Assembly (NCBI GenBank): GCA_963667665.2
Contig: OY763927.2
Span: 1,120,001-1,184,000 of the forward strand
From: Nitrosopumilus sp.
Lineage (GTDB): Archaea; Thermoproteota; Nitrososphaeria; Nitrososphaerales; Nitrosopumilaceae
Reading direction: 5' to 3'
Length of the DNA: 64,000 bases
Program-made: the position numbers and the translations under genes
Shown here: positions 8,155 to 57,985 of the stretch, piece after piece
Layout of the letters: every line of letters starts with the position of its first letter
Numbering within the stretch: the stretch's first letter is position 1
The notes under the pieces: model-generated
The model's database searches: none
What the model was told of the DNA's origin: nothing
Seen by the model: only the letters and a program-made list of their open reading frames with translations

Positions 8155-8156
8155 TT

Positions 8157-10983: not shown

Positions 10984-11028
10984 ACTAAGCATACATATTA
11001 TATTTGGGTTTTAAGTGGTTTTATTATC

Positions 11029-11376
11029 ATGACTAATCAAGTAGTAATTCGTATGGCAAGAGATCTAAAAAAAGCATCAGTCAAAAATGATGCTCCAATT
11101 TGGGCAAAACTAGCAGAATATGCATTAAAGCCTTCTATTGCACGAAGAGATATCAACTTGAATAGAATTGCCCAGTTAACAAAAGAAAACGATACAGTAG
11201 TCTTTCCAGGGAAAGTTCTTGGAACAGGTAATGTTTCTCACAAAATCACACTATGTTCATTTTCAATTTCAAATTCTGCTGTTGATAAAATTATTGATAA
11301 TGGTGGAAAACTAATCAGTTTTTCAGATTTGATTAAGCAAAATCCTACTGGAAAAGGAGTGGTTCTACTTGGCTAG
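11029..11376 (+). CDS. rpl18e: 50S ribosomal protein L18e
   Basis: APIW, INLNRI, VVFPGKVLGTG; gene order. Confidence 0.95.
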   Translation: MTNQVVIRMARDLKKASVKNDAPIWAKLAEYALKPSIARRDINLNRIAQLTKENDTVVFPGKVLGTGNVSHKITLCSFSISNSAVDKIIDNGGKLISFSDLIKQNPTGKGVVLLG

Positions 11377-11833
11377 TCAAGAAACAGTTGTCAGAACAGA
11401 CAGACCAATAGTTGTTGATGCAACAGACCATATTGCTGGAAGACTATCATCAAACGTAGCAAAATTACTAATCAAAGGAAACAGAGTTTCAGTTGTAAAT
11501 TGTGAGAAAATCATGATGAGTGGAACAAGAAGTAACCAAATTAAAGAATACAGAGAATTTTTAGAAATTAACAGTATCATCAATCCAAAACACGGACCTG
11601 TCCATTACAGAAGACCAGATACAATTATTGCAAAAATGATTCGTGGAATGTTACCATATGATAGAAAACCATCAGGAAAAGAATCACATCAAAGACTTAG
11701 AACATACATTGGTTCTCCAAAAGAATTAAAATCACTTGAAAAAATTCAATTTGAAAAAGCTAAAATTAGAAAATCTTCATCAAATTATACTACAGTGGGA
11801 GAATTATGCAGAGTAATAGGGTGGACTGAATGA
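11369..11833 (+). CDS. rpl13: 50S ribosomal protein L13
   Basis: VDATDHIAGRLSS, IRGMLP. Confidence 0.95.
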   Translation: MASQETVVRTDRPIVVDATDHIAGRLSSNVAKLLIKGNRVSVVNCEKIMMSGTRSNQIKEYREFLEINSIINPKHGPVHYRRPDTIIAKMIRGMLPYDRKPSGKESHQRLRTYIGSPKELKSLEKIQFEKAKIRKSSSNYTTVGELCRVIGWTE

Positions 11834-12279
11834 CAACTCCAAAAACTGAAATTTATTTTGCAACTAGAAAAACAGCTAGTGCACATGTTTACATTACAAA
11901 AGGAAAAGGTAAAGTTAGAATTAACAATGTTCCAGTTGAAATGATCCCACAAGAAACTGCACGTGAAGTAATGTTAGTACCATTAGAAATCACAGGTGAC
12001 TTGAGAGATAAAATAGATATTTCTGTTAGAGTAAGCGGAGGAGGTTTCATGGGACAAGCAAGTGCTGTTGCAACTGCAATCTCAAGAGCACTTATAGGAT
12101 GGACAAAATCTAAAAAAGAACCTAAAGAGCATCCATTCCCAAAATCCACAAGAGAGGACCTAAGAAAAAGAATCACAGATTTCGATAAATTTCTAGTAAG
12201 TGGAGATGCCAGAAGAAAAGAACCAAAGAAATTTGGCGGACCTGGTGCCAGAAGAAGAAAACAGAAATCATACCGTTAG
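11830..12279 (+). CDS. rps9: 30S ribosomal protein S9
   Basis: GGGFMGQA, EPKKFGGPGARRRKQKSYR. Confidence 0.97.
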   Translation: MTTPKTEIYFATRKTASAHVYITKGKGKVRINNVPVEMIPQETAREVMLVPLEITGDLRDKIDISVRVSGGGFMGQASAVATAISRALIGWTKSKKEPKEHPFPKSTREDLRKRITDFDKFLVSGDARRKEPKKFGGPGARRRKQKSYR

Positions 12280-12282
12280 ACT

Positions 12283-13002
12283 GTGAAGGCTGTAATTTTA
12301 GCAGGCGGCAAAGGAACTAGAGGTAAGCCATACACTGAATATTTTCCAAAAGCAATGACTCCCATTAATGGTAAGCCATTAATTGATTATATTGTAAAAT
12401 ACCTAAAATCATTCAGTTTTGTAAAAGAGATTATCATTGTTTCAGATTTTAATGGATTAGGAGGACAAATCAAAAACTATTATGGAAATCAAAAAAATAT
12501 CACATTTGTTCAAGATTCACAAAGTGGTACAGGTGGAGATCTTTTACATATTGAAAAAAAACTCAAAGGTGAATCAGAATTTTTGTTATGGTTTGTAGAT
12601 AACTTGTGTTCAATAGATCTAAAAAAGATGAAAGAGTTTTTCAGAGAGAAAAATAGTTCTGCATGTATTGCAACAAGAACAAAAAGAAAAGAAGAAACAG
12701 GATTTGCTATTGTAGAGAACGGAATAATAAAAGAATTCAAAGAAAAACCAGTTATGAAATTACAGTTATCAGAATGTTTAGGAATCTATATGCTTGGAAA
12801 AGACATCATTAAACGAATCAAGGCAAAACAAAAACAAAACAAGATTAATCTGTCATACGATATTTTACAACAATTATCAAAAGAAGGAAAAATTAGTGCT
12901 TATGACATTGGAAACAAAGAATGGTTAGATGTAGAATCACCCATGATTTTAGAAAGAAATGAAAAAATGGTAAAGAAGATCATAAAACAGATGGGACTTT
13001 AG
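12283..13002 (+). CDS. Sugar-phosphate nucleotidyltransferase family protein
   Basis: AVILAGGKGTR, PKAM, EFKEKP. Confidence 0.85.
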   Translation: MKAVILAGGKGTRGKPYTEYFPKAMTPINGKPLIDYIVKYLKSFSFVKEIIIVSDFNGLGGQIKNYYGNQKNITFVQDSQSGTGGDLLHIEKKLKGESEFLLWFVDNLCSIDLKKMKEFFREKNSSACIATRTKRKEETGFAIVENGIIKEFKEKPVMKLQLSECLGIYMLGKDIIKRIKAKQKQNKINLSYDILQQLSKEGKISAYDIGNKEWLDVESPMILERNEKMVKKIIKQMGL

Positions 13003-13564
13003 ACTCTTTTTCAAATTCAGATATTTTATCTTCAAATTGTAAAGTTTGTGAAATATCATCTAAACCATCTAAGAGAATTTTTTTCTTGTAAGAGTCTATT
13101 TCAAAAGATATCTCTTCAGATGAAGTTTTGATGATTTGTTTTTCTAGGTCAACTTCGATTGTGTCTAGTTCTAGTTGTAGTTTTTCAACTGTTTTTTGAT
13201 TTAATGAAATTGGTAAAAGCCCATTTTTGAAGCAGTTGCTAAAGAAAATATCTGCAAAAGAAGGTGCGATAATTACAGAAAAACCATAGTCTTGAAGGGC
13301 CCAAACTGCATGTTCTCGACTAGAACCACACCCAAAATTGTCCCCAGTTACCATAATTTCAGAATTATCATATTTTGAATCATTTAATACAAAATCAGAT
13401 TTTAAATTCTCGTTTTCATCATAACGCCAATTATAAAACAAAAATTTTCCAAATCCTGACTTGTGAATCAATTTTAAAAATTGTTTTGGAACAATTTGAT
13501 CAGTATCCACATTAATCTTATCAAGTGGAGTGATGATACTCTTTATTTTTTTGAAGGATTCCAT
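12980..13564 (-). CDS. leuD: 3-isopropylmalate dehydratase small subunit
   Basis: [33 protein letters not shown]. Confidence 0.92.
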   Translation of the reverse strand: MESFKKIKSIITPLDKINVDTDQIVPKQFLKLIHKSGFGKFLFYNWRYDENENLKSDFVLNDSKYDNSEIMVTGDNFGCGSSREHAVWALQDYGFSVIIAPSFADIFFSNCFKNGLLPISLNQKTVEKLQLELDTIEVDLEKQIIKTSSEEISFEIDSYKKKILLDGLDDISQTLQFEDKISEFEKESKVPSVL

Positions 13565-13565
13565 T

Positions 13566-14981
13566 TTAACTCAAATCCATCTCGCGTACATCTACAAAGT
13601 GTCCTTCAATTGCAGCAGCTGCTGCCATTACAGGACTGACTAAATGAGTTCTTCCACCAGTTCCCTGTCTGCCTTCAAAATTCCTGTTTGATGTGCTTGC
13701 ACATCTTTCACCAGGAGACAAGATATCAGGGTTCATTCCAAGACACATGCTACATCCAGCTTCTCGCCATTCAAAATTAGCATCAATGAAAATTTTATCA
13801 AGACCCATTTCTTCAGCTTGTTTTTTTACCATCTGAGAACCTGGTACAACCATTGCTCGAACATTTGTAGAAATTTTTTGTCCTTTGACTACTTTAGATG
13901 CTTCAATGAGATCTTCTAGTCTTGCATTTGTACATGAACCGATAAATACTCTATCAATTTTGATGTCTGTGATTGGAATTCCTGGTTTAAGATCCATATA
14001 ATCAAGGGCTTTTTCAGCACCTTTCTTTTGATTAGCATCACCTTTGGAAAATTCATCAGGAGATGGAATTGATTCAGTTACGTCACATGTCATTCCAGGA
14101 TTTGTACCCCAACTAACTTGAGGTGCAATATCATTGATATTCAAAGTGAATTGTTTTTCAAATTTTGCATCACTATCTGTTTTTAGATGTTCTTTCCAAT
14201 TATCAACAAGTGATTCATAGTTTTTTGGGGTATATTCTCTACCTCTAAGATAATCAAAAGCCTTCTCATCAGGTGCAATAAGACCTGCACGTGCTCCAGC
14301 TTCAATTGACATATTACAAATAGTCATTCTTTGCTCCATAGAGAGATCAGTAATGCCTTGACCACAATATTCGATAACAGTGCCATTACCACCACTGGTT
14401 CCAATATTTTTGATAATTGATAATACAATATCCTTAGCAGTTACTGCATGGGGGTTCTTTCTTTTTCCTTCAACTCTAATTTCAAATGGTTTTGGTTTTT
14501 CTAACCATAAAGTTTGAGATGTCAAAACATGTTCAACTTCACTTGTTCCGATTCCAAAAGCTAGTGTTCCAAAAGCCCCATGAGTTGAAGTATGACTATC
14601 GCCACAAACAATTGTAGAACCAGGTATGGTAATTCCCAATTGAGGTCCAATTACATGAACAATTCCTTGGTTAGGACTGTTTATATCAAATAACTTGATT
14701 CCAAAATCTTTACAGTTTTTTTCCAAAGTTTGAATTTGAACAGCTGAAGTTTGATCCAATATTGGAAGAGACCTATCATTTGTTGAAACATTATGATCCA
14801 TTGTAGCAATAGTAAGATCAGGTCTTCTAACTTTTCTTTTATTCATCCGTAATCCATCAAAGGCTTGAGGAGATGTTACTTCATGTACAAGATGTCTATC
14901 AATATAGATTAGAGAAGGACCATTTTGTTTTTCAACAACTATATGAGACTTCCATATTTTTTCAAAAAGAGTTGTTCCCAT
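13566..14981 (-). CDS. leuC: 3-isopropylmalate dehydratase large subunit
   Basis: [37 protein letters not shown]; start placed at [10 protein letters not shown]. Confidence 0.92.
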
Positions 14982-16742: not shown

Positions 16743-16814
16743 AAACAAAAAAGCTTGTTCTACAGATTAAAAGCTTTTCAGAACAATAAAAAAGAAAAGA
16801 GTGCTCAGAATATT

Positions 16815-17591
16815 GTGCAACTAACAGTTTTACCACTATTAGCAAAGAGGATGGTAGGAAAATTTGATGTTTTTGAGGTCTTATTAGAAACATTAGGAAA
16901 AAATAATACAAAATTGCAAGAAGGAGATGTTTTAGTAATTTCAACAAAATATATCTCAAATTCACAAGGAAGGATTATCGAACTAGAAAAAATCAGAACA
17001 TCAAATGAAGGTACAGAAATTTCAAAAAAGTTCCAGTTAAAACCTGAAATTGCCGAAATCATCATCAGAGAATCTGATACAATTTTTGGCGGTATCGGAG
17101 GATTTGTAATTACATCGTCAGATAACATAATGGCACCAAATGCAGGAATTGACAAATCTAATGTAAAAAAAGGGAAAGTCGTCCTATATCCTACAAAGCC
17201 ATATCTTATTGCAGAACAAATTCGTAGAAAAATTTTCTTAAAATTATTCATTCATGTTGGAATAATCTTAGTAGATAGTAGGTTAATGCCAGCAAGAATT
17301 GGAACATCAGGAGTTGCAGTTGCATGTGCGGGAATTGAACCAGTTTTAGATATGAGAGCAAAAAAAGATCTTGACGGTAATTCATTAAAAGTAACATTTC
17401 AGGCAGTAGTTGATAATCTCGCAACAATTGCAAATCACAAGATGGGAGAAGGTGCAGAGTCAAAACCATTTGCCATAGTTAGGAATTCAGGTGCAAAACT
17501 TACTGATAGAAAAATCAATTCTTCAGAAATGGCAATATCCCCAGATCAATGTGTATACGTAAGAGGATTATCAAATCCTGCAAAGAATTAG
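16815..17591 (+). CDS. cofE: Coenzyme F420-0:L-glutamate ligase
   Basis: GDVLVISTK, NAGIDKSN, R.GTSGVAV, MGEGAESKPFAIVR; GTG start inferred. Confidence 0.85.
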   Translation: MQLTVLPLLAKRMVGKFDVFEVLLETLGKNNTKLQEGDVLVISTKYISNSQGRIIELEKIRTSNEGTEISKKFQLKPEIAEIIIRESDTIFGGIGGFVITSSDNIMAPNAGIDKSNVKKGKVVLYPTKPYLIAEQIRRKIFLKLFIHVGIILVDSRLMPARIGTSGVAVACAGIEPVLDMRAKKDLDGNSLKVTFQAVVDNLATIANHKMGEGAESKPFAIVRNSGAKLTDRKINSSEMAISPDQCVYVRGLSNPAKN

Positions 17592-24656: not shown

Positions 24657-25952
24657 TTAGAAAAGACTTGTAATTTCATCGAAATTCCAAAAAGATTCTT
24701 TTGGTTTTTGAGAATAATCTAAGAATCCTTTCTCTTGTAATTTTTTTATAATAAATGCAGAATATGCAGGAGCACCAGTAGCTCCAGGAGAATTATAATT
24801 TACAATATGAAACGAATTTTTGCCAACAAGCTCCAAAATATCTTTTACAAATTCACCTTTGGAAGAAATAACAGGTGTTCGTATTCCTGCGGTACCATGT
24901 TTGGTGAAATATTCAGGTTTGATTTTTGGAATAAATTGTTGGATTCTATTAACCATCGCAGTTTTTGAAACAGAGCTAAGGAATTCTTTAGAAAGCATTG
25001 ATAGAAAACTACTATTTGTAAGAAGACGCCTCACATTTCCTCCAAATATTTCAAGGATTTTAGAAACTGTTGTATTTAGTTCACCTACATATCCTTCATA
25101 AGTTTCAGGGGTTGCTACAGGTACTGCATTTGGTCCAATCTCAGTTGTTCCATTAGATCTTTTAATCCAATGAGGATCTAAAAATGGGAATTCAGAAAAT
25201 CTAGCTACAGTGTAAATATTTGTTTTAACTAAATCTGCATATGATTGATCACATATCCAGTATTCTCCTCTAAAATGAAGATCATCGTATTCTTGTGCAA
25301 GATTACATTTTTTAGCAATATCTAATGAATTGCCACCAGAACAATTTATCAAAAATTTTGCAGTTAACGTAGAATCATCAGAGAACGTAAGTTGTACCTC
25401 TGAATTGTCATCAATGTTTATCACTTCTTTGTTAAACAAAAATTTCGTTCCATTTTTTTCAGATTCTTTTTGTAACTCTTTAGTTAAAATTCCATAATCG
25501 GTGGAGACATCCCTTGAACAGTAAAGGCCAGAGTAAGCATGTAGGTTTGATTCTTTTTTTAAAAGGTCTTTTGAATCAAGTAATTCAACTTGTTTTTCAG
25601 GAATTCCATTTTGGGTAGACCACTTCATGTATTTCTCTAAAGTTTTATGTTGTTGTTCATCTGAGGCCACTTCAATTGTTCCAACTTCATACCATGGTAG
25701 AGATTTCTTCTTTGCAAAAATTTCCCATAAATCATGAGAAACTAGAGATGAAACTGCAGATGTTTTTCTTTTTTTAGGATCTAGATAAAATGGGGAATGA
25801 ACCACGCCTGTATTTCTACTACTAGTGTGTTTTGCTACATCATTTTCTTTTTCAATTACACAGACATTAAGATCATAAAGTGTTGATAGCCAATATGAAA
25901 TCGTTGTACCTAAAATTCCTCCACCAATAATTGCAATATCAAATTTTTCCAA
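24657..25952 (-). CDS. FAD-dependent oxidoreductase, L-2-hydroxyglutarate oxidase (LhgO)-like
   Basis: IIGGGILG, HTSSRNTGVVHS, FRGEY, GPNAV, AGIR, SPGAT. Confidence 0.85.
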   Translation of the reverse strand: MEKFDIAIIGGGILGTTISYWLSTLYDLNVCVIEKENDVAKHTSSRNTGVVHSPFYLDPKKRKTSAVSSLVSHDLWEIFAKKKSLPWYEVGTIEVASDEQQHKTLEKYMKWSTQNGIPEKQVELLDSKDLLKKESNLHAYSGLYCSRDVSTDYGILTKELQKESEKNGTKFLFNKEVINIDDNSEVQLTFSDDSTLTAKFLINCSGGNSLDIAKKCNLAQEYDDLHFRGEYWICDQSYADLVKTNIYTVARFSEFPFLDPHWIKRSNGTTEIGPNAVPVATPETYEGYVGELNTTVSKILEIFGGNVRRLLTNSSFLSMLSKEFLSSVSKTAMVNRIQQFIPKIKPEYFTKHGTAGIRTPVISSKGEFVKDILELVGKNSFHIVNYNSPGATGAPAYSAFIIKKLQEKGFLDYSQKPKESFWNFDEITSLF

Positions 25953-25982: not shown

Positions 25983-26831
25983 TTATTGTATATTTTTAGC
26001 CTGTTCGTTCTTCTTCATTTGATGATATGTGTCAATAAATCCAGTTGAGGTGTCAGTATTATCTGGACATAATGCATTATGAGCTTCTGACAATTTGTAC
26101 CAAGGAATTGTTGGATACATGTGATGAATGTAGTGATATCCACCATTATGATGAAATAAATTTTTAAAAAATCCAATATCAGATCTAGAGCCAGACTTTG
26201 TGTTATAATGTTCAGTTACTTCTGCCCAATAAAAGAAACTTGCAAAAGACCACAAGAATGGAATAAACCAATACATTGCCAAAATATGTAAGACATCAAA
26301 ATACCAGAAAATTGAAATTACAGGTATCCAAAATATTGCAAACTTTATGGAGCTTTTTGGAGGATTTAATTGAATTGCAAATCTAAGATAAAAAAGTCCA
26401 GCATATCCAATGATTGGTTTTATGAACCACATCCAAAAAAGATTCTTTTTAGGATTGTTTAGTCCATGTACTTCATAATCTCTAACAATGTGATCTACTT
26501 CTGTATTCATTTGATAATGATGATCTAAATGTTCAGTTCGATATTGATTCATATCTACAAAAAATGGTACTGCATAAACCCATTCCAGATAATCATTTAG
26601 TTTTTTTGTTTTAAACAAATTGAAATGAGATGCTTCATGGAACAATGATTCACCAATTGCATATTGGAATGCACCGATAATCCATACTGAAATTAGGTAA
26701 ACAATCCAATCATTTGCCCATATACTAAAGCCAATTACACCGAAAATTACTCCCCAATCAAAAATAAGTGCTGTAAATCCCCTCAGATTACTTCTTTGAA
26801 CAAAATCCTGAGCTTTTGGTTGCATTGCCAT
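25983..26831 (-). CDS. Membrane fatty acid desaturase superfamily protein
   Basis: Three His boxes (HEASH, HLDHH, HYIHH) plus TEH; TM segments. Confidence 0.85.
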   Translation of the reverse strand: MAMQPKAQDFVQRSNLRGFTALIFDWGVIFGVIGFSIWANDWIVYLISVWIIGAFQYAIGESLFHEASHFNLFKTKKLNDYLEWVYAVPFFVDMNQYRTEHLDHHYQMNTEVDHIVRDYEVHGLNNPKKNLFWMWFIKPIIGYAGLFYLRFAIQLNPPKSSIKFAIFWIPVISIFWYFDVLHILAMYWFIPFLWSFASFFYWAEVTEHYNTKSGSRSDIGFFKNLFHHNGGYHYIHHMYPTIPWYKLSEAHNALCPDNTDTSTGFIDTYHQMKKNEQAKNIQ

Positions 26832-26870
26832 GTTCAAATTTTTTTTAGTTCAACACAGATTTAAGATTTT

Positions 26871-47615: not shown

Positions 47616-48494
47616 TTATTCTTTATCCGTATTTTTTATAATGAGATCAATAACATCTGATGCTCTAAATGAACTTCTAACGAATGGGCCAGATTCTACA
47701 TGCAAGAATCCCAGTTTTTTCAAATCAAGTTTTAATTGGTAAAATTTTTCTGGTGTTACAAACTCCTTCACTGAAAGATGTGATAAAGATGGTTGTAAGT
47801 ACTGACCAAGAGTAATGAAATCAACATCAACATCTCTGAGTTCTTGTGCAGTTTGTAGAATTTCTTCTTTTGATTCACCTAATCCCAACATCAAAGATGA
47901 TTTTGTAAAAATGCTAGAATTTATTTCTTTTACATATTTCAGAACTTTCAGTGATTGCTTGTAATTTGCTCGAAGGTCTCTAATAGAGGGACTTAATCTT
48001 TTGACAGTTTCAACATTATGACCAATTACATTGGGTTTTGCTTTTGCTATCGTTTCGATGAATTTTTCATTTCCACTAAAATCAGGAATTAATGACTCAA
48101 CTACTGTATTTGGGCATTCAGATTTTATGCATTGAATAGTTTTAGCAAAATGCTCAGAGCCTTCATCTGGAAGATCATCTCTGCAAACAGACGTGATTAC
48201 TATATAACGAAGATTCCAATCTTTGATTGCTTCTGCTACATGTTGAGGCTCCTTAGAATCTAATTCGAAGGGTTTTCCAGTTTCAACATTGCAAAATTTG
48301 CAGCCACGTGAGCACACATCACCCATGATCATAATTGTTGCAGTTCCTACACCCCAACATTCAGAAATATTAGGACAGGAGGCCTCCTCACAAACAGTAT
48401 GTAGATTATATTTTTGCAAAGTCTTTCTAACTTTGAGATAGTTTTCACCTGAAGGAATTTTCATTTTTAACCAGCTGGGCCGGATTAAACTCAT
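47616..48494 (-). CDS. lipA: Lipoyl synthase
   Basis: CEEASCPNISEC (CX4CX5C), CSRGCKFC radical SAM motif, GQYLQP, VRSSF; start placed at MSLIRPSWLK. Confidence 0.95.
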   Translation of the reverse strand: MSLIRPSWLKMKIPSGENYLKVRKTLQKYNLHTVCEEASCPNISECWGVGTATIMIMGDVCSRGCKFCNVETGKPFELDSKEPQHVAEAIKDWNLRYIVITSVCRDDLPDEGSEHFAKTIQCIKSECPNTVVESLIPDFSGNEKFIETIAKAKPNVIGHNVETVKRLSPSIRDLRANYKQSLKVLKYVKEINSSIFTKSSLMLGLGESKEEILQTAQELRDVDVDFITLGQYLQPSLSHLSVKEFVTPEKFYQLKLDLKKLGFLHVESGPFVRSSFRASDVIDLIIKNTDKE

Positions 48495-48505
48495 TGATTC
48501 AATGA
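48491..48505. promoter_or_regulatory. Palindrome TCATTGA-T-TCAATGA at the divergent lipA/gcvT promoter
   Basis: Perfect 7-1-7 inverted repeat overlapping the inferred lipA start codon. Confidence 0.35.
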
Positions 48506-48536
48506 ACATATAACAAATAATAACATTTTACATTTC

Positions 48537-49592
48537 ATGCGATCTCCATTTTTCAAAAAACATTTAGAATCAAAAGCCAAAATGGTTGACTTTCATGGAT
48601 GGGAAATGCCATTACAGTATTCTGGAATTATTGATGAGCACAAAAATGTCAGAGAAAGCGTTGGATTGTTTGATGTTTCTCATATGGGTAGATTCAAGAT
48701 TATAGGAGATGCAGAATCACAAATACAACATTTGATAACAAATGACATTTCAAAGATTGGTGACAAACAAGCTATCTATTCTCCAATGTGTAACGAAAAT
48801 GGTGGAATAATAGACGATGTGATAGTTAGCAGAATCAATTCAGATGAATTTGTAATTGTTGTAAATTCATCAAACATCAAAAAAGATCTTGATTGGATCA
48901 CAGAGAATGTAAAGTCATGTGAGATTCAAAATGTCACAGATGACTATGCGTTATTAGCACTGCAAGGTCCAAAAGCTGAAAATGTTCTAAAAGATGCAGG
49001 GGTTGAGCAAATAGAAGATCTCAAGTCATTTCATTTACTTGAAACAAAACTATACAAAACTGATTGTATTATTTCAAGAACTGGGTACACTGGTGAAGAT
49101 GGATTTGAGTTATTTTTTGATTCAAAACAGCTACAAGTTTGGGAAAAATTATTGGAAACAGGCACAAAATATGGAATAAAGCCTATTGGTTTGGGTGCAC
49201 GGGACACACTAAGACTCGAAGCAGGATTGATGCTTTATGGGAATGACATTGATGAGACAATCACTCCACTTGAAGCACCACTAAAGTGGACCGTAAAATT
49301 TGAGACTGAATTTATTGGAAAAACAGCACTTGAACACAAAAAAGTGGAGAGAAAAATGAGAGGTTTTGAAATTATCGAAGCAAAAAGAGTTGCTAGAAAA
49401 GACAACAAGGTTTACGATGAGAAAGAGGAGATCGGAATTGTAACATCAGGTAGTTTCTCCCCCACACTTGGCAAGCCAATTGGATATTGTTTTGTACCTG
49501 TAGAATATTCTTTAGAGAGAAAAATTAAGATCGATATTGGTGATAAATTCTATGATAGCAAGTTAACATCTACTAGATTTTATAAAAGATAA
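48537..49592 (+). CDS. gcvT: Glycine cleavage system T protein (aminomethyltransferase)
   Basis: FHGWEMPLQY, LFDVSHMG, RTGYTGEDGFE, GLGARDTLRLEAG. Confidence 0.96.
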   Translation: MRSPFFKKHLESKAKMVDFHGWEMPLQYSGIIDEHKNVRESVGLFDVSHMGRFKIIGDAESQIQHLITNDISKIGDKQAIYSPMCNENGGIIDDVIVSRINSDEFVIVVNSSNIKKDLDWITENVKSCEIQNVTDDYALLALQGPKAENVLKDAGVEQIEDLKSFHLLETKLYKTDCIISRTGYTGEDGFELFFDSKQLQVWEKLLETGTKYGIKPIGLGARDTLRLEAGLMLYGNDIDETITPLEAPLKWTVKFETEFIGKTALEHKKVERKMRGFEIIEAKRVARKDNKVYDEKEEIGIVTSGSFSPTLGKPIGYCFVPVEYSLERKIKIDIGDKFYDSKLTSTRFYKR

Positions 49593-49629
49593 AACAACTT
49601 TTTTTAAAGAGATTATTTCAGAGTCTGCC

Positions 49630-50010
49630 GTGGCAGGAAAAAAATTTACTAAAGAACATGAATGGGTTGAAAAAAGCGATCAAAGTATAATTGTTGGAAT
49701 AACAGAATTTGCACAAGATCAGCTTGGAGACATAGTATCAATTGAATTACCTAAAGTTTCAAGTTCATTCAAACAAAATGATGTCATGGTAATCATAGAT
49801 TCCGTCAAAGCATCATCTGATATCTACTGTCCAGTAGATGGAGAAATTATTGAAATTAATGAAAAATTATTAGAACATCCAGAATTAATCAATCAGTCAC
49901 CCTATGAAGAAGGATGGATTGTGAAAATAAAACCAAGTAATCATGAGCAAATAGATTCTTTGCTTTCTAAAGAACAATATGATGAACTAGTAGGACAAAA
50001 TAAGGAGTAA
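49630..50010 (+). CDS. gcvH: Glycine cleavage system H protein
   Basis: HEWV, VGITEFAQDQLGD, lipoyl-Lys motif DSVKASSD, INQSPYEEGWI. Confidence 0.96.
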   Translation: MAGKKFTKEHEWVEKSDQSIIVGITEFAQDQLGDIVSIELPKVSSSFKQNDVMVIIDSVKASSDIYCPVDGEIIEINEKLLEHPELINQSPYEEGWIVKIKPSNHEQIDSLLSKEQYDELVGQNKE

Positions 50011-50013
50011 TCA

Positions 50014-51267
50014 ATGAACTTTATTCCGCATACAAAAGAAGACATTTCTAAAATGCTTTCAGTTGTTGGATGCTCAACATTAGATGAATTATTTTCAGAA
50101 TTCAAACCAAGACTTTCTGAATTAAAGCTAGACAGTCCGTTAAGTGAGATGGAATTAGTTTCATACATTACATCTTTGTCAGAAAAAAATTCAAAAATGA
50201 AATACTTTGCAGGTGGTGGGTCTTATGATCATTACATACCATCGGTGATCAATCATCTTGTGTCAAGAGGAGAATTTTTGACATCATACACACCATATCA
50301 ACCAGAAGCTAGTCAGGGAGTTTTGCAGGTTTTATACGAATTTCAGTCATTCATATGCCTTCTTACAGGCATGGATGTCTCAAATGCATCTCTTTATGAC
50401 GGTGCATCAGCCTTGGCTGAAGCAGCATTGCTATCCAGTGCACACACCAAACGAAAGGATGTTTTTGTAGATGATGGACTTAATCCAGAATATCTCAAAG
50501 TTCTTCAAACATACTGTGATGGTACAGAGCTTACCATTACAAATACAATTGATGAAAATACTGCATGTGTAATTTCACAGACTCCAGACTTTTATGGTAA
50601 TATCAAAAACTCTCAAAGCTTGATTGATAAGGCTCATCAAAACAATGCACTGTTCATAAACTGTATCTCAGATCCAACCTCTTTGGCAATACTCAAAACT
50701 CCTGGAGAATTTGGTGCAGATGTTGTTGTTGGAGAAGGTCAAGCATTTGGTATACCAAAAAGTTTTGGTGGTCCTTATCTAGGATTTATTGCAGTAAAAC
50801 AATTTTTGACAAAAAAATTACCAGGAAGAATTGTAGGAATGACTACAGATTACCAAGGCAATGAAGGTTTTGTTTTGACATTACAAGCAAGAGAGCAGTT
50901 CATCAGAAGGGAACGCGCCACAAGTAACATTACTACAAATCAGACACTGCTGGCATTAACTGCAACAATTTACTTGGCATCATTAGGAAAATCTGGACTT
51001 CAAAATGTAGCAAGGGCATCATATCACAGAGCACATCTTTTGCATGAAAAGTTAAGGAAAAATGGCTTTGATGCCATCAACACAAATCCATTTTATAATG
51101 AATTTTTAGTAAAATCACCAAAACCATCTGAAAAAATAATTGCAGATTTGATGGAATGTGGCATTTTTGGTGGAATAGATGTTGGAGACAATAAATTATT
51201 GGTATGTTGCACTGAAAAAAATTCACTTCAAGATATTGGTTCATATATTTCGGCGGTAAGTAAATGA
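50014..51267 (+). CDS. gcvPA: Glycine dehydrogenase (decarboxylating) subunit 1
   Basis: TSYTPYQPE.SQG, NASLYDG, REQFIRRERATSNI. Confidence 0.95.
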   Translation: MNFIPHTKEDISKMLSVVGCSTLDELFSEFKPRLSELKLDSPLSEMELVSYITSLSEKNSKMKYFAGGGSYDHYIPSVINHLVSRGEFLTSYTPYQPEASQGVLQVLYEFQSFICLLTGMDVSNASLYDGASALAEAALLSSAHTKRKDVFVDDGLNPEYLKVLQTYCDGTELTITNTIDENTACVISQTPDFYGNIKNSQSLIDKAHQNNALFINCISDPTSLAILKTPGEFGADVVVGEGQAFGIPKSFGGPYLGFIAVKQFLTKKLPGRIVGMTTDYQGNEGFVLTLQAREQFIRRERATSNITTNQTLLALTATIYLASLGKSGLQNVARASYHRAHLLHEKLRKNGFDAINTNPFYNEFLVKSPKPSEKIIADLMECGIFGGIDVGDNKLLVCCTEKNSLQDIGSYISAVSK

Positions 51268-52676
51268 AATTAATTTTTGACTACAACCAATCAAATACAA
51301 AGCATACACCTTCTCAAGAAAATGATGTAGATTTGCCTGAAGATCTAAAAAGAAGTTCTCTTCCATTATGTGATGTAAACGAGATTCAAATTATTAGACA
51401 CTACACTGAGTTGTCAAGAAAAAATTATGGTATTGACACCAATTTTTATCCTCTAGGCTCATGCACCATGAAGTACAATCCCAGAGTAAATGAAGATCTT
51501 GCCAAACTACCAGGATTTTCAAACTTACACCCTCTCATGCCTACTACTCATGCACAAGGGGCATTGCAAGTCATTTGGGAACTAGAAGATAATCTAAAAG
51601 AAATCACTGGAATGGATGCGTTTTCTCTTCAACCATCTGCTGGTTCACAATGTGAATTGCTTGGAGTAATGATTGCAAAAAAATATTTTGCTGAAAAAAA
51701 TGAGAACAGAACAAAAATAATAATTCCAGACTCTGCTCATGGAACAAATCCTGCAACTGCAGCCATGTGTAAATTCCAAACAGTTACGATTCCAACAGAT
51801 GTACGTGGTAACATGGACATTAATGAATTCAAAAAGGCGATAGGACCAGATGTGGCAGTTGTAATGATTACAAATCCAAACACTTTGGGGTTATATGAAG
51901 AAAATTTATCTGAGATCAAAGATCTTGCAAAAGAAAATGGAGCGCTAATGTATTGTGATGGTGCAAACATGAATGCACTTTTGGGAATTAGTAAACCTGC
52001 AGATCAAGGATTTGATATGATGCATCTTAACTTACACAAGACATTTTCTACACCACATGGTGGTGGTGGACCTGGCGGAGGAGCACTTGGAGTTAGATCA
52101 TTTCTTGAAGATTATTTACCAGTACCAAGAATTAAAAAAGAAAATGAACAATTCATTTTTGATTCTAACAAAGAAAAGAGTGTAGGTAAGCTGCATTCGT
52201 TTTATGGAAACTTTGGAATACTTGTTCGCGCATTATCATACTTAAAATCATGGGGATCAGACATTCAAAAAGTTTCACAGATAGCAGTTTTAAATGCAAA
52301 TTATCTTTTTAGTTTGCTAAAAGAAGACTTTGATGTACCATATGACAGGAGGTGTGCACATGAATTTGTCATATCTGCAAAAAACTTTGGTGAGAAAAGT
52401 ACTATTAACATTGCAAAAAGAATTACAGATTATGGTTTTCATGCACCTACAATTTACTTTCCATTGATTGTAAAAGAGGCCTTGATGATAGAGCCAACAG
52501 AAACTGAAAGCAAAGACACACTAGATGAGTTTGCTAAGGTCTTGAAAACCATCATCAAAGAACTAAAAGAAGACCCAGAATTAGTCAAAAATGCACCTCA
52601 TACCATTCCTGGAAGATTAGATGAGGTAAAGGCAGCACGCCAGCTAAATTTACGATGGATGCCTAAGGAATCATAA
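51264..52676 (+). CDS. gcvPB: Glycine dehydrogenase (decarboxylating) subunit 2
   Basis: PLGSCTMKYNP, AHGTNPA, PLP-Lys motif HLNLHKTFSTPHGGGGPG, MIEPTETE. Confidence 0.96.
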   Translation: MKLIFDYNQSNTKHTPSQENDVDLPEDLKRSSLPLCDVNEIQIIRHYTELSRKNYGIDTNFYPLGSCTMKYNPRVNEDLAKLPGFSNLHPLMPTTHAQGALQVIWELEDNLKEITGMDAFSLQPSAGSQCELLGVMIAKKYFAEKNENRTKIIIPDSAHGTNPATAAMCKFQTVTIPTDVRGNMDINEFKKAIGPDVAVVMITNPNTLGLYEENLSEIKDLAKENGALMYCDGANMNALLGISKPADQGFDMMHLNLHKTFSTPHGGGGPGGGALGVRSFLEDYLPVPRIKKENEQFIFDSNKEKSVGKLHSFYGNFGILVRALSYLKSWGSDIQKVSQIAVLNANYLFSLLKEDFDVPYDRRCAHEFVISAKNFGEKSTINIAKRITDYGFHAPTIYFPLIVKEALMIEPTETESKDTLDEFAKVLKTIIKELKEDPELVKNAPHTIPGRLDEVKAARQLNLRWMPKES

Positions 52677-52677
52677 A

Positions 52678-52989
52678 TTGAATTCCAGCCACGATGAAAT
52701 CATTACTAAAATTATCACAGCAAAACTAGGCAAGATTGTAAAAATCGAGCTTGCCTACAAGCAAGAATCACAATTGATTCATTCAATTAGAATAACAGGT
52801 GATTTTTTTGTTCATCCTGAAGAAGTAATTGAAGAACTAGAGCAAGGACTTTGTGGAATCAAATTAGAAAAAGAAGATTTGAAAAACAAAATTCATTTAG
52901 TTTTGAAGAACTCAGAGATTTTTGGATTTGAAATTGATTCGTTAGTTGATGTTATACTTGATACAAAAGGTGATAAAAATAAAATTTGA
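52678..52989 (+). CDS. Lipoate-protein ligase small accessory subunit (stand-alone C-terminal domain, LplB-like)
   Basis: IRITGDFFVHPEEVIEELE motif; overlaps the ligase catalytic gene. Confidence 0.8.
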   Translation: MNSSHDEIITKIITAKLGKIVKIELAYKQESQLIHSIRITGDFFVHPEEVIEELEQGLCGIKLEKEDLKNKIHLVLKNSEIFGFEIDSLVDVILDTKGDKNKI

Positions 52990-53701
52990 AAAAATTAGAA
53001 TTTTAGAAACAGAAAATAATATTGGACCATGGAACATGGCAGTAGATGAGTTTTTACTTTACAACTGTAAAGAACCTATTTTAAGAATTTATGGTTGGTC
53101 AAAGCCCTGTATTTCTATTGGTTACTTTCAAAACATAGACGAAGTTAATTACAAAAAATGTAATGAGAAAAATGTAGATGTAGTTAGAAGAATTACTGGT
53201 GGGGGAGCAGTTTTTCATGATATGGAGTTAACATATTCGTTTGTTACAAAAAATTTTCCACAAAATATATTGGAATCATATAAAGAAATCTGTGAGATAA
53301 TCATACAAGCATTAAAGAATCTTGGACTTGATGCCAAGTTTTCGCCATTAAATGATGTTACAGTTAATGAGAAGAAGGTTTGTGGAAACGCACAGACTAG
53401 AAAGAACAATACTTTACTGCAACATGGAACAATCCTTTTAGATGTAGATGTAGAAAAAATGTTTTCACTGCTTAATGTACCAATAGAAAAGATTAGTGAT
53501 AAAAAAATTTCAGATGTTAAAAATAGAGTTGCAGGTATCTCAAAAACGTTTGAACAAGTTTCTGATGCTCTAAAAAGTGCCGCAAGGGATGTTTTTGGAT
53601 GTGAACTTGATCCTATCAAACTAAACCAAGAAGAATTAAAATCATGTCAAAAGTTAATGGATAAAAAATTTTCAAGTGAAAATTGGACGTTTAGAAGATA
53701 A
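52970..53701 (+). CDS. lplA: Lipoate-protein ligase catalytic subunit
   Basis: NMAVDE, SIGYFQ, RRITGGGAVFHD, KKVCGNAQ, LQHGT; start uncertain (GTG at 52970). Confidence 0.9.
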   Translation: MIKIKFEKIRILETENNIGPWNMAVDEFLLYNCKEPILRIYGWSKPCISIGYFQNIDEVNYKKCNEKNVDVVRRITGGGAVFHDMELTYSFVTKNFPQNILESYKEICEIIIQALKNLGLDAKFSPLNDVTVNEKKVCGNAQTRKNNTLLQHGTILLDVDVEKMFSLLNVPIEKISDKKISDVKNRVAGISKTFEQVSDALKSAARDVFGCELDPIKLNQEELKSCQKLMDKKFSSENWTFRR

Positions 53702-53742
53702 TCTTGGTAAAATTTATTGCTACTTGAATTTCATCAAATCCT

Positions 53743-55047
53743 ATGTATGATGCAGTCATAATTGGTGCCGGACCTGCTGGTTATGTGTGCGCAATAAGCC
53801 TAGCAAGGCAAGGTGCAAAGGTATGTGTTGTTGAGAAAAATGGTCTAGGAGGCACATGTACCCAAAAGGGCTGCATTCCAACAAAATATCTACATTCAAT
53901 GGGTGATATTGTAAGAAAGGCAAAATCAGCCAAAAAATTTGGTATCAACAGCAACATTGAGATTGATTATTCAATTCTAAGATCAAAAATGAAATCAACT
54001 GTTTCAAAGCTTGCATTAGGAATTGATTTTCTGTTCAAAGAGCATGGAGTAGAGCTAATAGAAGGAGAAGCTATCATTAAATCACAAAATCAAGTTATAG
54101 TAAATGATAAAACATTAGAGACAAAAAATATTGTTCTTGCAACAGGAAGCAAGCCCAAAAGTTTTCCAGTAAATAATTTAGCTGAAAAAATCGTGTCAAC
54201 TGATTCAATTTTTGATCTAGAATATCTTCCAGAATCTATTTTGATTGTAGGTGGAGGATATAGTGGATGTGAGTTTGCATCAATTCTCAATGCACTAGGA
54301 TGTAAAATTTGGTTAGTTGAGATGGAGAATTCTCTTCTGCCTGGTCAACCAAAAGAGGTAGGAGTTGCCATTGAAAAATATATGAAACTAGATGGAATTT
54401 CTGTTATGACAAAATCTTCTATAAAAATAGATAACGGAAAAGTAATGATAAATGAGGATGAGATCAATCCAGAAAAAATTCTAATCAGTACAGGAAGAGA
54501 ACCTAATTTTAACACTGATGAACTAGACAAGTTAGGAATTGCTTGGAATAAGGAGGGCATTACAGTTAATGAGCGCATGCAAACCAATCTGTCAAATGTT
54601 TATGCAATAGGAGACATTACAGGAAAATATGAGCTTGCACATGTAGCATCATATCAAGGTGAGGTTGCAGCACAAAATATCTTGGGAGAAAAAAGTACAA
54701 TGGATTATTCTGTAGTACCATTCTGTGTGTTTACATATCCTGAAGTGGCAATTGTTGGAAAATGTGAGGGAAATTCGAAAGAGTTTCCTATGGTAGCTAA
54801 TGCAAAAGCAAATTGTTTAGGAGATACACGTGGATTCATCAAGGTTTTTGAGGAAAATGGGATTTTACAGGGTACAATCATAGTTGGAGCACATGCAAGT
54901 GAAATCATTGGTGAAGCTACATTGGCAATAAAATTAAAACTGAAACCAAAAGACGTGATTGAAACAATTCATGCTCATCCTACCCTTCCAGAAGCATTTG
55001 TAGATGCTCTAAGAAGTCTGGATGGAAAAAGCATCCATACCTCATAA
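53743..55047 (+). CDS. lpdA: Dihydrolipoamide dehydrogenase (GCS L protein)
   Basis: GAGPAG, GGTCTQKGCIPTK redox disulfide, GGGYSGCE, HAHPTLPE. Confidence 0.93.
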   Translation: MYDAVIIGAGPAGYVCAISLARQGAKVCVVEKNGLGGTCTQKGCIPTKYLHSMGDIVRKAKSAKKFGINSNIEIDYSILRSKMKSTVSKLALGIDFLFKEHGVELIEGEAIIKSQNQVIVNDKTLETKNIVLATGSKPKSFPVNNLAEKIVSTDSIFDLEYLPESILIVGGGYSGCEFASILNALGCKIWLVEMENSLLPGQPKEVGVAIEKYMKLDGISVMTKSSIKIDNGKVMINEDEINPEKILISTGREPNFNTDELDKLGIAWNKEGITVNERMQTNLSNVYAIGDITGKYELAHVASYQGEVAAQNILGEKSTMDYSVVPFCVFTYPEVAIVGKCEGNSKEFPMVANAKANCLGDTRGFIKVFEENGILQGTIIVGAHASEIIGEATLAIKLKLKPKDVIETIHAHPTLPEAFVDALRSLDGKSIHTS

Positions 55048-55049
55048 TA

Positions 55050-55056
55050 TTTTATA
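55050..55056 (+). promoter_or_regulatory. TATA-like box for the LLM/condensing-enzyme pair
   Basis: TTTTATA ending about 25 nt before the ATG at 55081, the spacing expected for a leaderless transcript. Confidence 0.45.
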
Positions 55057-55080
55057 CTAGAGAGGTATCGTAGAAATTTT

Positions 55081-56007
55081 ATGACTAAAATTGGAATTGA
55101 GCTTGGAATAAGAGCTCCTATAGAAGCTATAAAGCGAGCAGCTCAGATTGCTGATGCAAATTCTGTTGAATACTTTTTTGTGCCAGAAACACATCCAGGA
55201 TTTTTTGGAGTGAATGCATTAGATGTATTATCAAATATCAGTGAGAAAGTAAAGAATGTAAAACTTGGAACAGGGATAATCAATGTATTTTCAAGAACAC
55301 AAGAAGAGATTCTTGATGCTGCAAATCACATACACACAAAGACTGGCGGAAAATTTGTTTTAGGAATGGGAACAAGTGCACCCATAATTATTGAGAATTT
55401 GTGGAAGATGGAATTTAAAAAACCACTTTCACGATTAAGGGATTACTCTAATTTTATCAAGACAAAATATTCTGGTCCAATCTATTGGGCTGCAGTTGGC
55501 AAAAAAACCACAAAACTTGCAGCTGAAAATGCAGATGGTGTAATATTTTTTTTAAAACCAAGAGATCAAATTTCAAATCATATAGATCTAATCAACTCAA
55601 CACTAAAGTCCTTGAATAAATCAGAGGATGAGTTTAATGTAATTTCAATTCTTCCTACTTTTTTTTCAGACAATAACAATCAAGCAAAAATGACCCTAGC
55701 TGGATACATTGGTGCAAATGAATTTTATGCAATTTCACTAACAAATGCTGGTTTTAAAGAAGAGGTTAAAAAAATAAAGAGTACTTATGAAAAAGGTGGA
55801 TTATTGGAGGCTATGCAAAATGTTGCAGATATACTGCTTGATGAACTAACAGTTTCAGGCTCAGTAGAACAGTGCAAAGAGAAAATTAAAAAAATTACCA
55901 AAAGCACTAAATTGAAAACCATAATTTTGGGATTTGACCTACCTGAAAACAAATACACAGATGATTTTTTTGAGAAACTTGATAAATTGCTGAAAAGCCT
56001 TCAATAG
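55081..56007 (+). CDS. LLM-class (luciferase-like) oxidoreductase, probably F420-dependent and Mer-like
   Basis: VPETH, VKLGTGIINVFSR, GGKFVLGMGTS, PIYWAAVGKKTTKLAAENADGVI. Confidence 0.85.
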   Translation: MTKIGIELGIRAPIEAIKRAAQIADANSVEYFFVPETHPGFFGVNALDVLSNISEKVKNVKLGTGIINVFSRTQEEILDAANHIHTKTGGKFVLGMGTSAPIIIENLWKMEFKKPLSRLRDYSNFIKTKYSGPIYWAAVGKKTTKLAAENADGVIFFLKPRDQISNHIDLINSTLKSLNKSEDEFNVISILPTFFSDNNNQAKMTLAGYIGANEFYAISLTNAGFKEEVKKIKSTYEKGGLLEAMQNVADILLDELTVSGSVEQCKEKIKKITKSTKLKTIILGFDLPENKYTDDFFEKLDKLLKSLQ

Positions 56008-56008
56008 G

Positions 56009-57106
56009 ATGCCATCTGTTAACTTATCAAACATAGTATTTACCAAGGCAAAATTTCGTTATTCAATTTCTGAGATAGTGGATGATTTTCTCAAGAAAAA
56101 GCTAGACAAGGAAGTTAGAGAATATGCAAAAAATGAGCTTGGAATAGACTATATCTACAAATCATATGATTTTTCAAAAATTGATTTTGACAAGGGGAAT
56201 TTTGTTGAGTCAGATGTTAGCCTAAATGACATGTATTATCAAACAGCAAAAAAGTCTCTACGTGGAGTCAATCCTAAAAAAATTGGATTATTCATTACAA
56301 TTAATGACAATCAGCAGTATCTTGATCCTTCACCAACAGTTGAACTAATTCCCAAGCTTTCATTTAGAAAAGATATCAGAGCACAAAACTTCCAGGGATT
56401 GGCATGTTCCTCATTTTCAGAATCGCTGCTAAATTCTGCAGGATATTTTCTCATGAATGGGAAAGAAGATGCATTTGTACTAATTGGGACACATTATACT
56501 CCATGGTTCTTAGATAGAATAAAGCAAATTAAACACATCACAAAAAAAGATAAAACAAATTTTTATAATTTAATTTATTTTTTGATTTTTAGTGATGCTG
56601 TTGCATCTACCATATTATCACAAAAAAAGACAAAAAATACGCAAATTCAGATTGATTCAAAATCAATTCTCACTCTAAAGGATACAAAAAATACTGAGAA
56701 AAATGCCACAATCAAAATGTCTCCAGACAAAAAACACAGAATAGTTTTTGATATGAAATTAAAGCCAAAAAAGCTTAGAGAAGAGGTAGCAAATCTTTCA
56801 GTAGAAAATCTCAAACTATTGCGCAAAAAGATGCCGTCTGAATTTAAAAGAATTAAGATCTGGGGATTACACACTGCGGGAGGTAGATTCGTAGATTATG
56901 TTTCAGAAAAATGTCAAATTGATAAAACAAAGATTGGACTCAGTTATGATTTAATGAAAAAGACAGGCAATACAGGTGCGGTAAGCTCACTACAATTCAT
57001 CTACGAATGCATAAATAAAAAAGATCTCTCCAAAAACAACTTGGGTTGTTTTATTGATTATGGTTGGGAAGGAGTTAACCTATTCATATTTAGAAAAGTA
57101 AATTGA
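56009..57106 (+). CDS. Type III polyketide synthase / FabH-like condensing enzyme (thiolase fold)
   Basis: Cys (QGLACSS), His (WGLHTAGG), Asn (TGNTGAVS) triad; LIFSDA corresponds to LFGDG; DYGWEG corresponds to GFGPG. Confidence 0.8.
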   Translation: MPSVNLSNIVFTKAKFRYSISEIVDDFLKKKLDKEVREYAKNELGIDYIYKSYDFSKIDFDKGNFVESDVSLNDMYYQTAKKSLRGVNPKKIGLFITINDNQQYLDPSPTVELIPKLSFRKDIRAQNFQGLACSSFSESLLNSAGYFLMNGKEDAFVLIGTHYTPWFLDRIKQIKHITKKDKTNFYNLIYFLIFSDAVASTILSQKKTKNTQIQIDSKSILTLKDTKNTEKNATIKMSPDKKHRIVFDMKLKPKKLREEVANLSVENLKLLRKKMPSEFKRIKIWGLHTAGGRFVDYVSEKCQIDKTKIGLSYDLMKKTGNTGAVSSLQFIYECINKKDLSKNNLGCFIDYGWEGVNLFIFRKVN

Positions 57107-57475: not shown

Positions 57476-57985
57476 TTAGTTCAAGATTCTAAGACTTCGA
57501 CAAACAGAATAAAGTGTTCTTCTCAGGTTTTTATCAATTAAAGACTCCATTCTGTTTTTCAAAACCCGTTTTGCTTCATCTCTTTCAGAACCAAGAGGTA
57601 AGGATAATACTTTATTTAGAAATTCTGATAGAGATTCTCTAATCCAACCATCCAGCATTGCATACACTTGTGGAGGAATAATATCGCATTTGTCTTCATT
57701 AAGATTAACTATATCTGCATAATTTTCATATTCAATTCTATACACTAAAGCCAAAACAACATTATCAGGTGTAGGATGCTCTAATATTTCTCGTGAACGT
57801 TCTCCTGTTTTTCCTTGTTCCACCTTATTTTTTAGGCCAACAGGATTGACTATTACACCATTGACTCCTACTTTTTTGCCATCAATACCTGTAATTACTC
57901 CAAAGATAAAGTCAAAAAAATCACCATTTTTTTTAGTAGCAAAAACATGAGCCCCTTCTTTTAGGGTAAGTTTTTTTCCAAACAT
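57476..57985 (-). CDS. Hypothetical protein
   Basis: 169-aa ORF that fills the gap; AT-rich promoter upstream. Confidence 0.7.
   Translation of the reverse strand: MFGKKLTLKEGAHVFATKKNGDFFDFIFGVITGIDGKKVGVNGVIVNPVGLKNKVEQGKTGERSREILEHPTPDNVVLALVYRIEYENYADIVNLNEDKCDIIPPQVYAMLDGWIRESLSEFLNKVLSLPLGSERDEAKRVLKNRMESLIDKNLRRTLYSVCRSLRILN

Follow-up and report, generated by a model that had tools for sequence, protein, structure and literature searches.

Two enzymes linked to the glycine cleavage and lipoate genes of Nitrosopumilus and a possible carrier-protein-independent source of octanoate

From where does an archaeon that has no acyl carrier protein (ACP) obtain the eight-carbon chain of lipoate? 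Archaea generally lack ACP and type II fatty-acid synthesis. The question is raised by a ten-gene block at positions 47616-57106 of a 64,000-nucleotide stretch of Nitrosopumilus sp. DNA (contig OY763927.2 of assembly GCA_963667665.2, positions 1,120,001 to 1,184,000), which is called the window throughout. According to the open reading frame (ORF) listing and scans with Pfam and NCBIfam, the block comprises lipA on the minus strand, followed on the plus strand by gcvT, gcvH, gcvPA, gcvPB, lplB, lplA and lpdA, and by the genes of two further enzymes, a luciferase-like oxidoreductase (LLM) and a condensing enzyme (KAS3L). An earlier note, made from the sequence of the stretch alone, proposed that these two enzymes build the octanoyl chain; it had listed all the genes at the positions at which they are found, and none of the LipB-type transferase, ACP and fatty-acid synthesis genes that it reported as absent is present in the block. 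The published Lpl/LipA and Lpl/LipS1S2 routes begin at "free octanoate", for which no source is named in the relevant passages of PMC10332631.

The best explanation of the data is that the ten genes constitute one functional module, which installs the glycine cleavage system (GCS) in an organism without other lipoate metabolism. LLM and KAS3L are very probably an integral part of this module, and a tentative case can be made that they provide its octanoate.

Association of the pair with lipA

Among 151 genomes of the family to which the window belongs (f1), 21 have LipA, 21 have an LLM orthologue and 20 a KAS3L orthologue, counted at E <= 1e-100, all within the same 21 genomes. The sole genome with LipA and LLM and no KAS3L match (G034) has its LLM gene 134 nt from a contig end. 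Two weak extra matches for KAS3L (23-27% identity) and two for LLM (32-36% identity) were read as paralogues. Two of the genomes counted here, G077 and G093, are unpublished; when they are left out, KAS3L is found in 18, LLM in 19 and LipA in 19 of 149 genomes. In the class sample, KAS3L occurs in 3 of the 83 other species of the window's genus, and a class-wide search of 401 genomes with the KAS3L profile revealed the pair in one further family, f63, in which all nine genomes were searched; four of them have LipA, and the same four have KAS3L, with the genes adjacent. Since the same genomes hold all three genes, LipA itself is accessory in f1, and LipA, LLM and KAS3L were gained or lost together. 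The earlier note had suggested that the pair should accompany lipA, gcv and lplAB genes, and that its occurrence without a lipoyl system would speak against a role in lipoate formation. The association holds in f1 and f63, the two families having the pair, and neither an orthologous pair nor a KAS3L orthologue without lipA was found in the f1, f63 or class-sample searches.

Such a distribution could also arise if the pair were a small secondary-metabolite passenger, producing an alkylpyrone, a resorcinol or a reduced diketide, whose co-occurrence with lipA merely follows from the inheritance and loss of one DNA block; the losses could each be a single deletion of the whole block. The gene order, inspected at 17 loci from at least ten genera, bears on this alternative. 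In order A, that of the window, the cluster lies between rpL10 and rpP1 and consists of a reversed lipA followed by gcvT through lpdA, LLM and KAS3L in the forward direction. In order B, found at another chromosomal site in genera g7 and g18, the genes from gcvH through lpdA are followed by LLM and KAS3L, and then by a reversed lipA and a forward gcvT. In order C, that of f63, LLM and KAS3L come first, followed by a reversed lipA and by the genes from gcvT through lpdA, and the cluster is located between the PPDK gene and TIM-FBPase. KAS3L stands directly after LLM in all three orders, which correspond to three chromosomal sites. The pair has thus remained within the cluster in three arrangements, at three sites and in two families, and no genome searched has it without lipA; both facts argue against a passenger.

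A decayed copy of the cluster is present at the rpL10/rpP1 site of a 99% complete genome of the same genus, G592 (locus L049, G592:C1:1161000-1180000, locus positions 7261-12513). It retains the part of KAS3L encoding residues 231-365, with stop codons, as well as remnants of LLM (residues 115-290), lpdA (12-127) and lipA (74-297); the gcv and lpl genes are gone. From these remnants it follows that the cluster was lost from an ancestral state and that, in this single case, the pair was not kept once the rest was lost. The pair did not survive there on its own and decayed along with lipA and lpdA, which speaks against a passenger.

Sequence evolution at intact loci points in the same direction, with one reservation. 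Across 11 loci, the trees of LLM plus KAS3L and of the six larger GCS and lipoylation proteins are congruent. Pairwise dN/dS values are 0.12-0.31 for LLM and 0.10-0.27 for KAS3L, within the span of 0.08-0.41 observed for the other eight cluster genes. Both genes are under purifying selection matching that on lipA, lplA and lpdA, which is a further point against a passenger. At these 11 loci the rate of evolution of the pair is about 1.5 times that of the GCS and lipoylation proteins, a difference that would suit a passenger. The earlier note had kept open the possibility that the pair is an independent passenger; because of the co-occurrence, the linkage kept through three gene orders and the joint decay in G592, we consider this unlikely.

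Predicted identity of the two enzymes

KAS3L (56009-57106, +, 365 amino acids) is predicted, from its structural model, Foldseek and profile matches and its catalytic triad, to be a thiolase-fold Cys-His-Asn condensing enzyme of the type III polyketide synthase (PKS) or 3-ketoacyl-CoA synthase (KCS) type. Its scores with the relevant Pfam models are all below threshold: 20.3 bits (E 6e-4) versus 26.6 for ACP_syn_III_C, 18.3 versus 27 for Chal_sti_synt_C and 14.7 versus 27 for FAE1_CUT1_RppA. The f63 orthologue scores 28.5 bits in Pfam, and many members of the KAS3L cluster have a precomputed PF08541 match. Residues C133, H288 and N321 do not vary in any of three alignments, of 16, 15 and 33 sequences, the largest of which reaches down to 18% identity, and the His and Asn motifs align with those of stilbenecarboxylate synthase and KCS. 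The structure modelled by AlphaFold with 33 homologues as input (pLDDT 94) has the thiolase alpha-beta-alpha-beta-alpha fold across the whole chain; in Foldseek searches with this model type III PKSs were the best matches (TM 0.74-0.80), and Foldseek and VIA also matched KCS and FabH. When the KAS3L family profile was compared with solved structures, 3-ketoacyl-CoA synthases came first (2.7e-26), with PKS18 and FabH within 10 bits. The invariant triad, the fold and the profile matches together lead to the prediction that KAS3L is a decarboxylating condensing enzyme of the branch that uses coenzyme A (CoA) thioesters. The label "PKS" given to it earlier is thus supported by the triad and fold as far as a condensing enzyme is meant; sequence matches alone, being weak and under the Pfam thresholds, would not have sufficed.

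The KAS3L family is an isolated one: 56 of 1.84 billion representatives match it at E <= 1e-3, and the named members among the best 120 of 141 clustered-database matches are Nitrosopumilaceae or Cenarchaeum proteins. The homologues at middle distance, P0123-P0132, have 32-41% identity and are probably represented by the f63 loci. As to their genomic context, a single-protein scan of genome contigs gave only two ordinary loci of the family, and a metagenome scan gave one unrelated partial match (L025). A complex prediction for KAS3L and LLM gave a score of 0.00, which speaks neither for nor against a complex. Seven distant genes resembling type III PKSs (22-28% identity) were found in other families, without lipoylation genes as neighbours except in G347. 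In this genome (L034, G347:C24:62000-80000, 8624-13911) a PKS-like gene, 22% identical to KAS3L at the protein level, is encoded on the strand opposite to gcvPB/gcvPA and separated from them by 1.3 kb containing the unrelated ThiS and a small ORF; its position was read as chance.

LLM (55081-56007, +, 308 amino acids) is a luciferase-like oxidoreductase of the F420 class, matching Bac_luciferase (PF00296) with 113.3 bits against a threshold of 27.9. Its 13 NCBIfam matches are all below the respective cut-offs, the best being TIGR04024 (115.5 bits versus 345.4), and 12 of the 13 are models of F420-type LLMs, so LLM likely uses coenzyme F420. The window also contains cofE, the gene of F420-0:gamma-glutamyl ligase (16755-17591, +, 204.7 bits), and the organism should therefore be able to make F420, the probable cofactor of LLM.

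A different role for LLM is conceivable here, namely that of an F420-dependent methylene-tetrahydropterin reductase similar to Mer, which would accept the C1 unit from the T protein, the condensing enzyme being unrelated to it. Mer is likewise a member of the LLM superfamily, and among solved structures it comes closest to LLM: all six solved-structure sequence matches of LLM are Mer (8.8e-18 to 1.5e-5), the Gly-Ile/Val of LLM aligns with the non-prolyl cis-peptide site of Mer, and the catalytic Glu6 of Mer aligns with E7. The scores with the Mer equivalog models are nevertheless far too low (98.2 bits versus 276 for NF002619 and 77.1 versus 348.7 for TIGR03555), and of the four pterin-site positions of jMer (PMC11094777) only Glu6 is kept, Phe233 being replaced by Tyr, residue 178 (carboxamide) by Phe and Asp96 by Ala. 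Positions C and D of the site are therefore not conserved, and position A is lost in f63, where the orthologues have Val for Glu and the neighbouring His-containing segment is shortened or deleted. Two observations on folate genes speak in favour of such a role. The only MTHFR-family match in the genome of the window is a sub-threshold one (20.1 bits) to a 285-amino-acid ORF outside the window (G000:C1:110495-111049), and a methylene-folate reduction route was not obvious from the search. In f63 a formate-tetrahydrofolate ligase (FTHFS) gene directly follows lpdA (L038, G615:C24, 14995-16716, -, 820 bits), the cluster lying between PPDK and TIM-FBPase, as does a cluster that lacks the pair (G654, L046); together these findings point to a location shared since early times and to an outlet for C1 units via folate. 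A Mer-like function would leave unexplained the invariant coupling of LLM to KAS3L at a distance of 1-19 nt, and overall we regard it as very improbable.

A possible route to octanoate

The genome of the window is 99.97% complete, which permits its need and its means for an eight-carbon chain to be assessed. No PP-binding (ACP) domain was found in it; of 14 control genomes, 11 gave a match in this search. The BPL_LplA_LipB family has two members in the genome, the lplA of the cluster and a 337-amino-acid ORF that is probably a biotin ligase, and none of them is a LipB-type second transferase. The sole Biotin_lipoyl domain occurs in a 171-amino-acid ORF, probably the biotin carboxyl carrier protein, and no lipoyl E2 domain was found elsewhere in the genome. 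By these domain counts GcvH is the only lipoyl acceptor and LplAB, a ligase of the free acid, the only loader. There are also one enoyl-CoA hydratase (ECH_1) and one strong match to 3-hydroxyacyl-CoA dehydrogenase (3HCDH), as expected for the 3-hydroxypropionate/4-hydroxybutyrate (3HP/4HB) cycle. Malonyl-CoA is abundant in these archaea, as this cycle runs via acetyl-CoA carboxylase. The N. maritimus hydratase Nmar_1308 is active in vitro on (E)-2-octenoyl-CoA, with 47 U/mg and a Km of 0.12 mM (PMC7845616, Table 4). The activities still missing are then a condensation that extends the chain irreversibly and one reduction or more, and we infer that these are the chemistries of KAS3L and LLM. 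It is also worth mentioning that a membrane protein of the FA_desaturase family (25983-26837, -, 101 bits) is encoded in the window beside a DAO-type FAD oxidoreductase (24657-25952, -), which is odd for an organism without fatty-acid synthesis.

On this basis the pair may be a dedicated ACP-independent, CoA-based and F420-linked chain-building unit, which borrows the hydratase and the dehydrogenase of the 3HP/4HB cycle and makes octanoate solely for lipoylation of the H protein; we put this forward tentatively, as a serious possibility short of a probable one. In successive rounds KAS3L would condense malonyl-CoA with the short acyl-CoAs acetyl-, butyryl- and hexanoyl-CoA, and each 3-oxoacyl-CoA product would undergo a reduction, a dehydration and a second reduction. 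Either the ketoacyl or the enoyl intermediate would be reduced by LLM with F420H2, and the remaining steps would be carried out by the 3-hydroxyacyl-CoA dehydrogenase of the cycle and its promiscuous enoyl-CoA hydratase. Three rounds would give octanoyl-CoA, and its hydrolysis octanoate, which LplAB would load on GcvH with ATP and into which LipA would then insert two sulfurs.

Several observations weigh against this proposal. Octanoate cannot be made by the two enzymes alone, as a second reductase and probably a thioesterase are also needed; the earlier suggestion of a dehydratase borrowed from the 3HP/4HB cycle is compatible with the hydratase in the genome and with the activity of Nmar_1308, and it covers only part of what would be required. 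The nearest structural relatives of KAS3L yield pyrones or resorcinols, and the TATA-like box in front of the pair, pointed out in the earlier note and read from the sequence as TTTATA at 55051-55056 (+), 28 nt before the ATG of LLM, is a possible internal archaeal TATA box that permits separate transcription. The f63 and window sequences are 33-34% identical in the pair and 59-69% identical in the GCS proteins. In G573 (L052, G573:C12, about 589-1698, -) KAS3L has a frameshift near codon 345 that places the conserved C-terminal strand in another frame; the other nine cluster genes of this genome are intact and 82-96% identical to those of the window, and the frameshift may be an assembly error in a metagenome-assembled genome of 110 contigs or mark an early pseudogene.

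To these are added the LipA systems that do without the pair. In the sister family f3, of the same order, LipA occurs in two of 35 sampled genomes, G654 and G648. The former provides a full view of a cluster (L046) that comprises lipA and gcvT-H-PA-PB-lplB-lplA-lpdA, lacks the pair and is flanked, as in f63, by PPDK and TIM-FBPase; the latter provides a partial one, with lipA-gcvT at a contig end. The KAS3L profile has no match in either genome (LLM orthologues were not searched there). In the phylum sample, none of the 60 LipA-bearing genomes of families other than f1 has a KAS3L orthologue or even a distant match, and LipA without KAS3L was also found in families f62, f70, f71, f72 and f76 of the class. 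Archaeal LipA systems as a rule clearly do not require the pair. The earlier note had considered that its hypothesis would fail if homologous blocks usually lacked the pair; this is partly the case, in f3, and is not so in f1 and f63. The one locus examined among the five class families with LipA and no KAS3L, in f62 (L047, G593:C1:839000-858000, 3968-10437), represents a different lipoylation set-up in the same order: lipA is the first gene of an operon for a 2-oxoacid dehydrogenase (fused E1, E2, E3), followed by a 209-amino-acid protein with the LplA/LipB catalytic domain and without an LplB partner. The occurrence of acyl-CoA dehydrogenase genes followed no pattern with respect to the absence of the pair: they are present in G648 and G615 and were not found in G654, G000 and G006.

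Four of these points, namely the pyrone- and resorcinol-forming type III PKSs as top structural matches, the TATA-like box, the f3 cluster without the pair and the far greater divergence of the pair in f63, would also suit the passenger discussed above. There is also an intermediate alternative, in which the pair belongs to the GCS/lipoate module and has another job there. KAS3L might, for example, be acyl-transferring or catalyse a single step, as an acetoacetyl-CoA synthase type of enzyme or by extending an existing acyl-CoA, and LLM would reduce what KAS3L makes, giving a metabolite for which there is a need only while the GCS is running. No product required by the GCS is known besides the lipoyl arm, the needs for pyridoxal phosphate, folate, FAD and NAD are common to genomes without the cluster, and the invariant Cys-His-Asn triad favours a decarboxylative condensation over plain transfer; such a role is accordingly rather unlikely, as judged at present. 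The octanoate proposal has in its favour the selection on the pair, its place as an integral part of the cluster and a genome without ACP; the function itself is a prediction, and the f3 cluster shows that the remaining genes can occur without the pair.

The other genes of the block and known systems

The block encodes a GCS with T and H proteins, two P subunits and the L protein. It opens with lipA (47616-48509, -), divergent from gcvT, whose product, a lipoyl synthase of 297 amino acids, scores 398.3 bits with NF004019 (cut-off 203) and 381.6 with TIGR00510 (cut-off 310.25) and contains both Fe-S motifs of the radical-SAM and auxiliary clusters, CX4CX5C at residue 40 and CX3CX2C at residue 66, as well as RSSF, of the C-terminal RSSY type, at residue 278. 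The plus strand begins with gcvT, for the aminomethyltransferase (48537-49592; GCV_T 307 bits, GCV_T_C 66 bits), and gcvH, for the lipoyl acceptor (49630-50010; GCV_H 148.5 bits), with the lipoyl lysine K60 in an SVK motif. These are followed by the genes of glycine dehydrogenase subunits 1 and 2, gcvPA (50014-51267; GDC-P 416 bits) and gcvPB (51264-52676; GcvP2_C 97 bits, GDC-P 32 bits). The lipoate-protein ligase is bipartite, its accessory and catalytic parts being encoded by separate, adjacent ORFs: lplB (52678-52989, +), for the small subunit corresponding to the C-terminal domain (Lip_prot_lig_C 36.8 bits versus 24; NF053749 LplB 53.8, below the cut-off of 65), and lplA (52946-53701, +), for the catalytic subunit (LplA-B_cat 172 bits; TIGR00545, LplA_large, 193.5, below the cut-off of 280), the real start of which is probably slightly downstream of the listed TTG. 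The last gene before the pair is lpdA, for dihydrolipoyl dehydrogenase, the L protein (53743-55047, +; TIGR01350 424.5 bits versus 408.8).

The gaps in the plus-strand array range from -44 to 41 nt. As the earlier note had it, LLM and KAS3L follow lpdA on the same strand and are 1 nt apart, the stop codon of LLM ending at 56007 and the ATG of KAS3L starting at 56009; at other loci the gap between lpdA and LLM is about 5 to 134 nt. In a small share, as contigs, of a true RNA run, two error-free contigs lie on lpdA only (54555-54984), and in a run merely guessed to be RNA a contig from an approximately 92% identical relative spans 55525-56316 over the LLM/KAS3L junction; no transcript or operon is shown by either. 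A scan for bacterial promoters and terminators, by a model not applicable to archaea, gave 31 promoter-like sites versus 42.8 in shuffled sequences. The block is situated between rpL1-rpL10 (+) and rpP1 (-), and in genomes of the same genus without the cluster rpL10 and rpP1 are convergent and 300-700 bp apart. Adjoining rpP1 there is an ORF of 169 amino acids (57476-57985, -) without a Pfam or NCBIfam match; it is kept with or without the cluster in every examined locus reaching that far, and is not a cluster member.

As a whole, the block corresponds to the GCS and lipoylation accessory island of deep-sea and sponge ammonia-oxidising archaea that has already been published (PMC7265257, PMC7848895). 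In the passages of these papers that describe the island it has the same gene content (gcvT/H/P, E3, lipoate ligase and lipoyl synthase), a patchy distribution and an insertion site defined relative to N. maritimus; the GCS and lipoylation genes are listed there, whereas LLM and the condensing enzyme are not mentioned in those passages. Close homologues of the LLM of the window bear the names of deep-sea Nitrosopumilus genomes. A full-text literature search on glycine cleavage in these archaea found no published description of the pair, supplements, which may list the genes, being outside its scope; in the relevant passages of PMC8397731 and PMC7554672, LLMs and the GCS are mentioned separately only.

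The pair is a concrete, cloneable candidate, two small soluble enzymes that track lipA one-to-one in two families. Should the octanoate proposal be true, the lipoyl carbon chain of archaea would have its first identified source, a streamlined autotroph would be seen to reuse its carbon-fixation enzymes for cofactor synthesis, a physiological role would be added to the many unassigned F420-type LLMs of these archaea, and a minimal ACP-free route to C8 would be at hand that might serve in engineering. Should it be wrong, there would still be a strictly conserved and unexplained part of the glycine cleavage module of marine archaea to account for.

One of the closest known systems is the route from free octanoate by Lpl(AB) and LipA. 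As presented in parts of PMC10332631, it likewise has a bipartite LplA/LplB and LipA clustered with the acceptor, and no octanoyltransferase; that route starts from existing octanoate, without accounting for its origin in archaea that lack ACP, whereas the present cluster has two additional enzymes as constant members. The alkyl-starter type III PKSs (PKS18 and PKS11 of M. tuberculosis, the type III PKS of M. marinum and CylI) differ from KAS3L in sequence (11-16% identity), and their products are pyrones or resorcinols. We know of no such enzyme with a linkage to lipoate genes. The plant KCS/FAE1 enzymes are, like the proposed KAS3L, condensing enzymes of an ACP-independent, CoA-based fatty-acid elongation, although their identity to KAS3L is 14-15% and the model aligns from about plant residue 84 onwards, the N-terminal part of the plant enzymes being without a counterpart. 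Plant KCS enzymes make very long chains, with KCR, HCD and ECR as partners and no LLM. A dedicated octanoyl supplier for lipoate does exist in mitochondria, in the form of type II fatty-acid synthesis, which is ACP-based and has a full set of enzymes. In the archaeal block there are, in contrast, no ACP and only two dedicated genes; what the two systems would have in common is a small route to fatty acids that is maintained chiefly for the sake of lipoylation.

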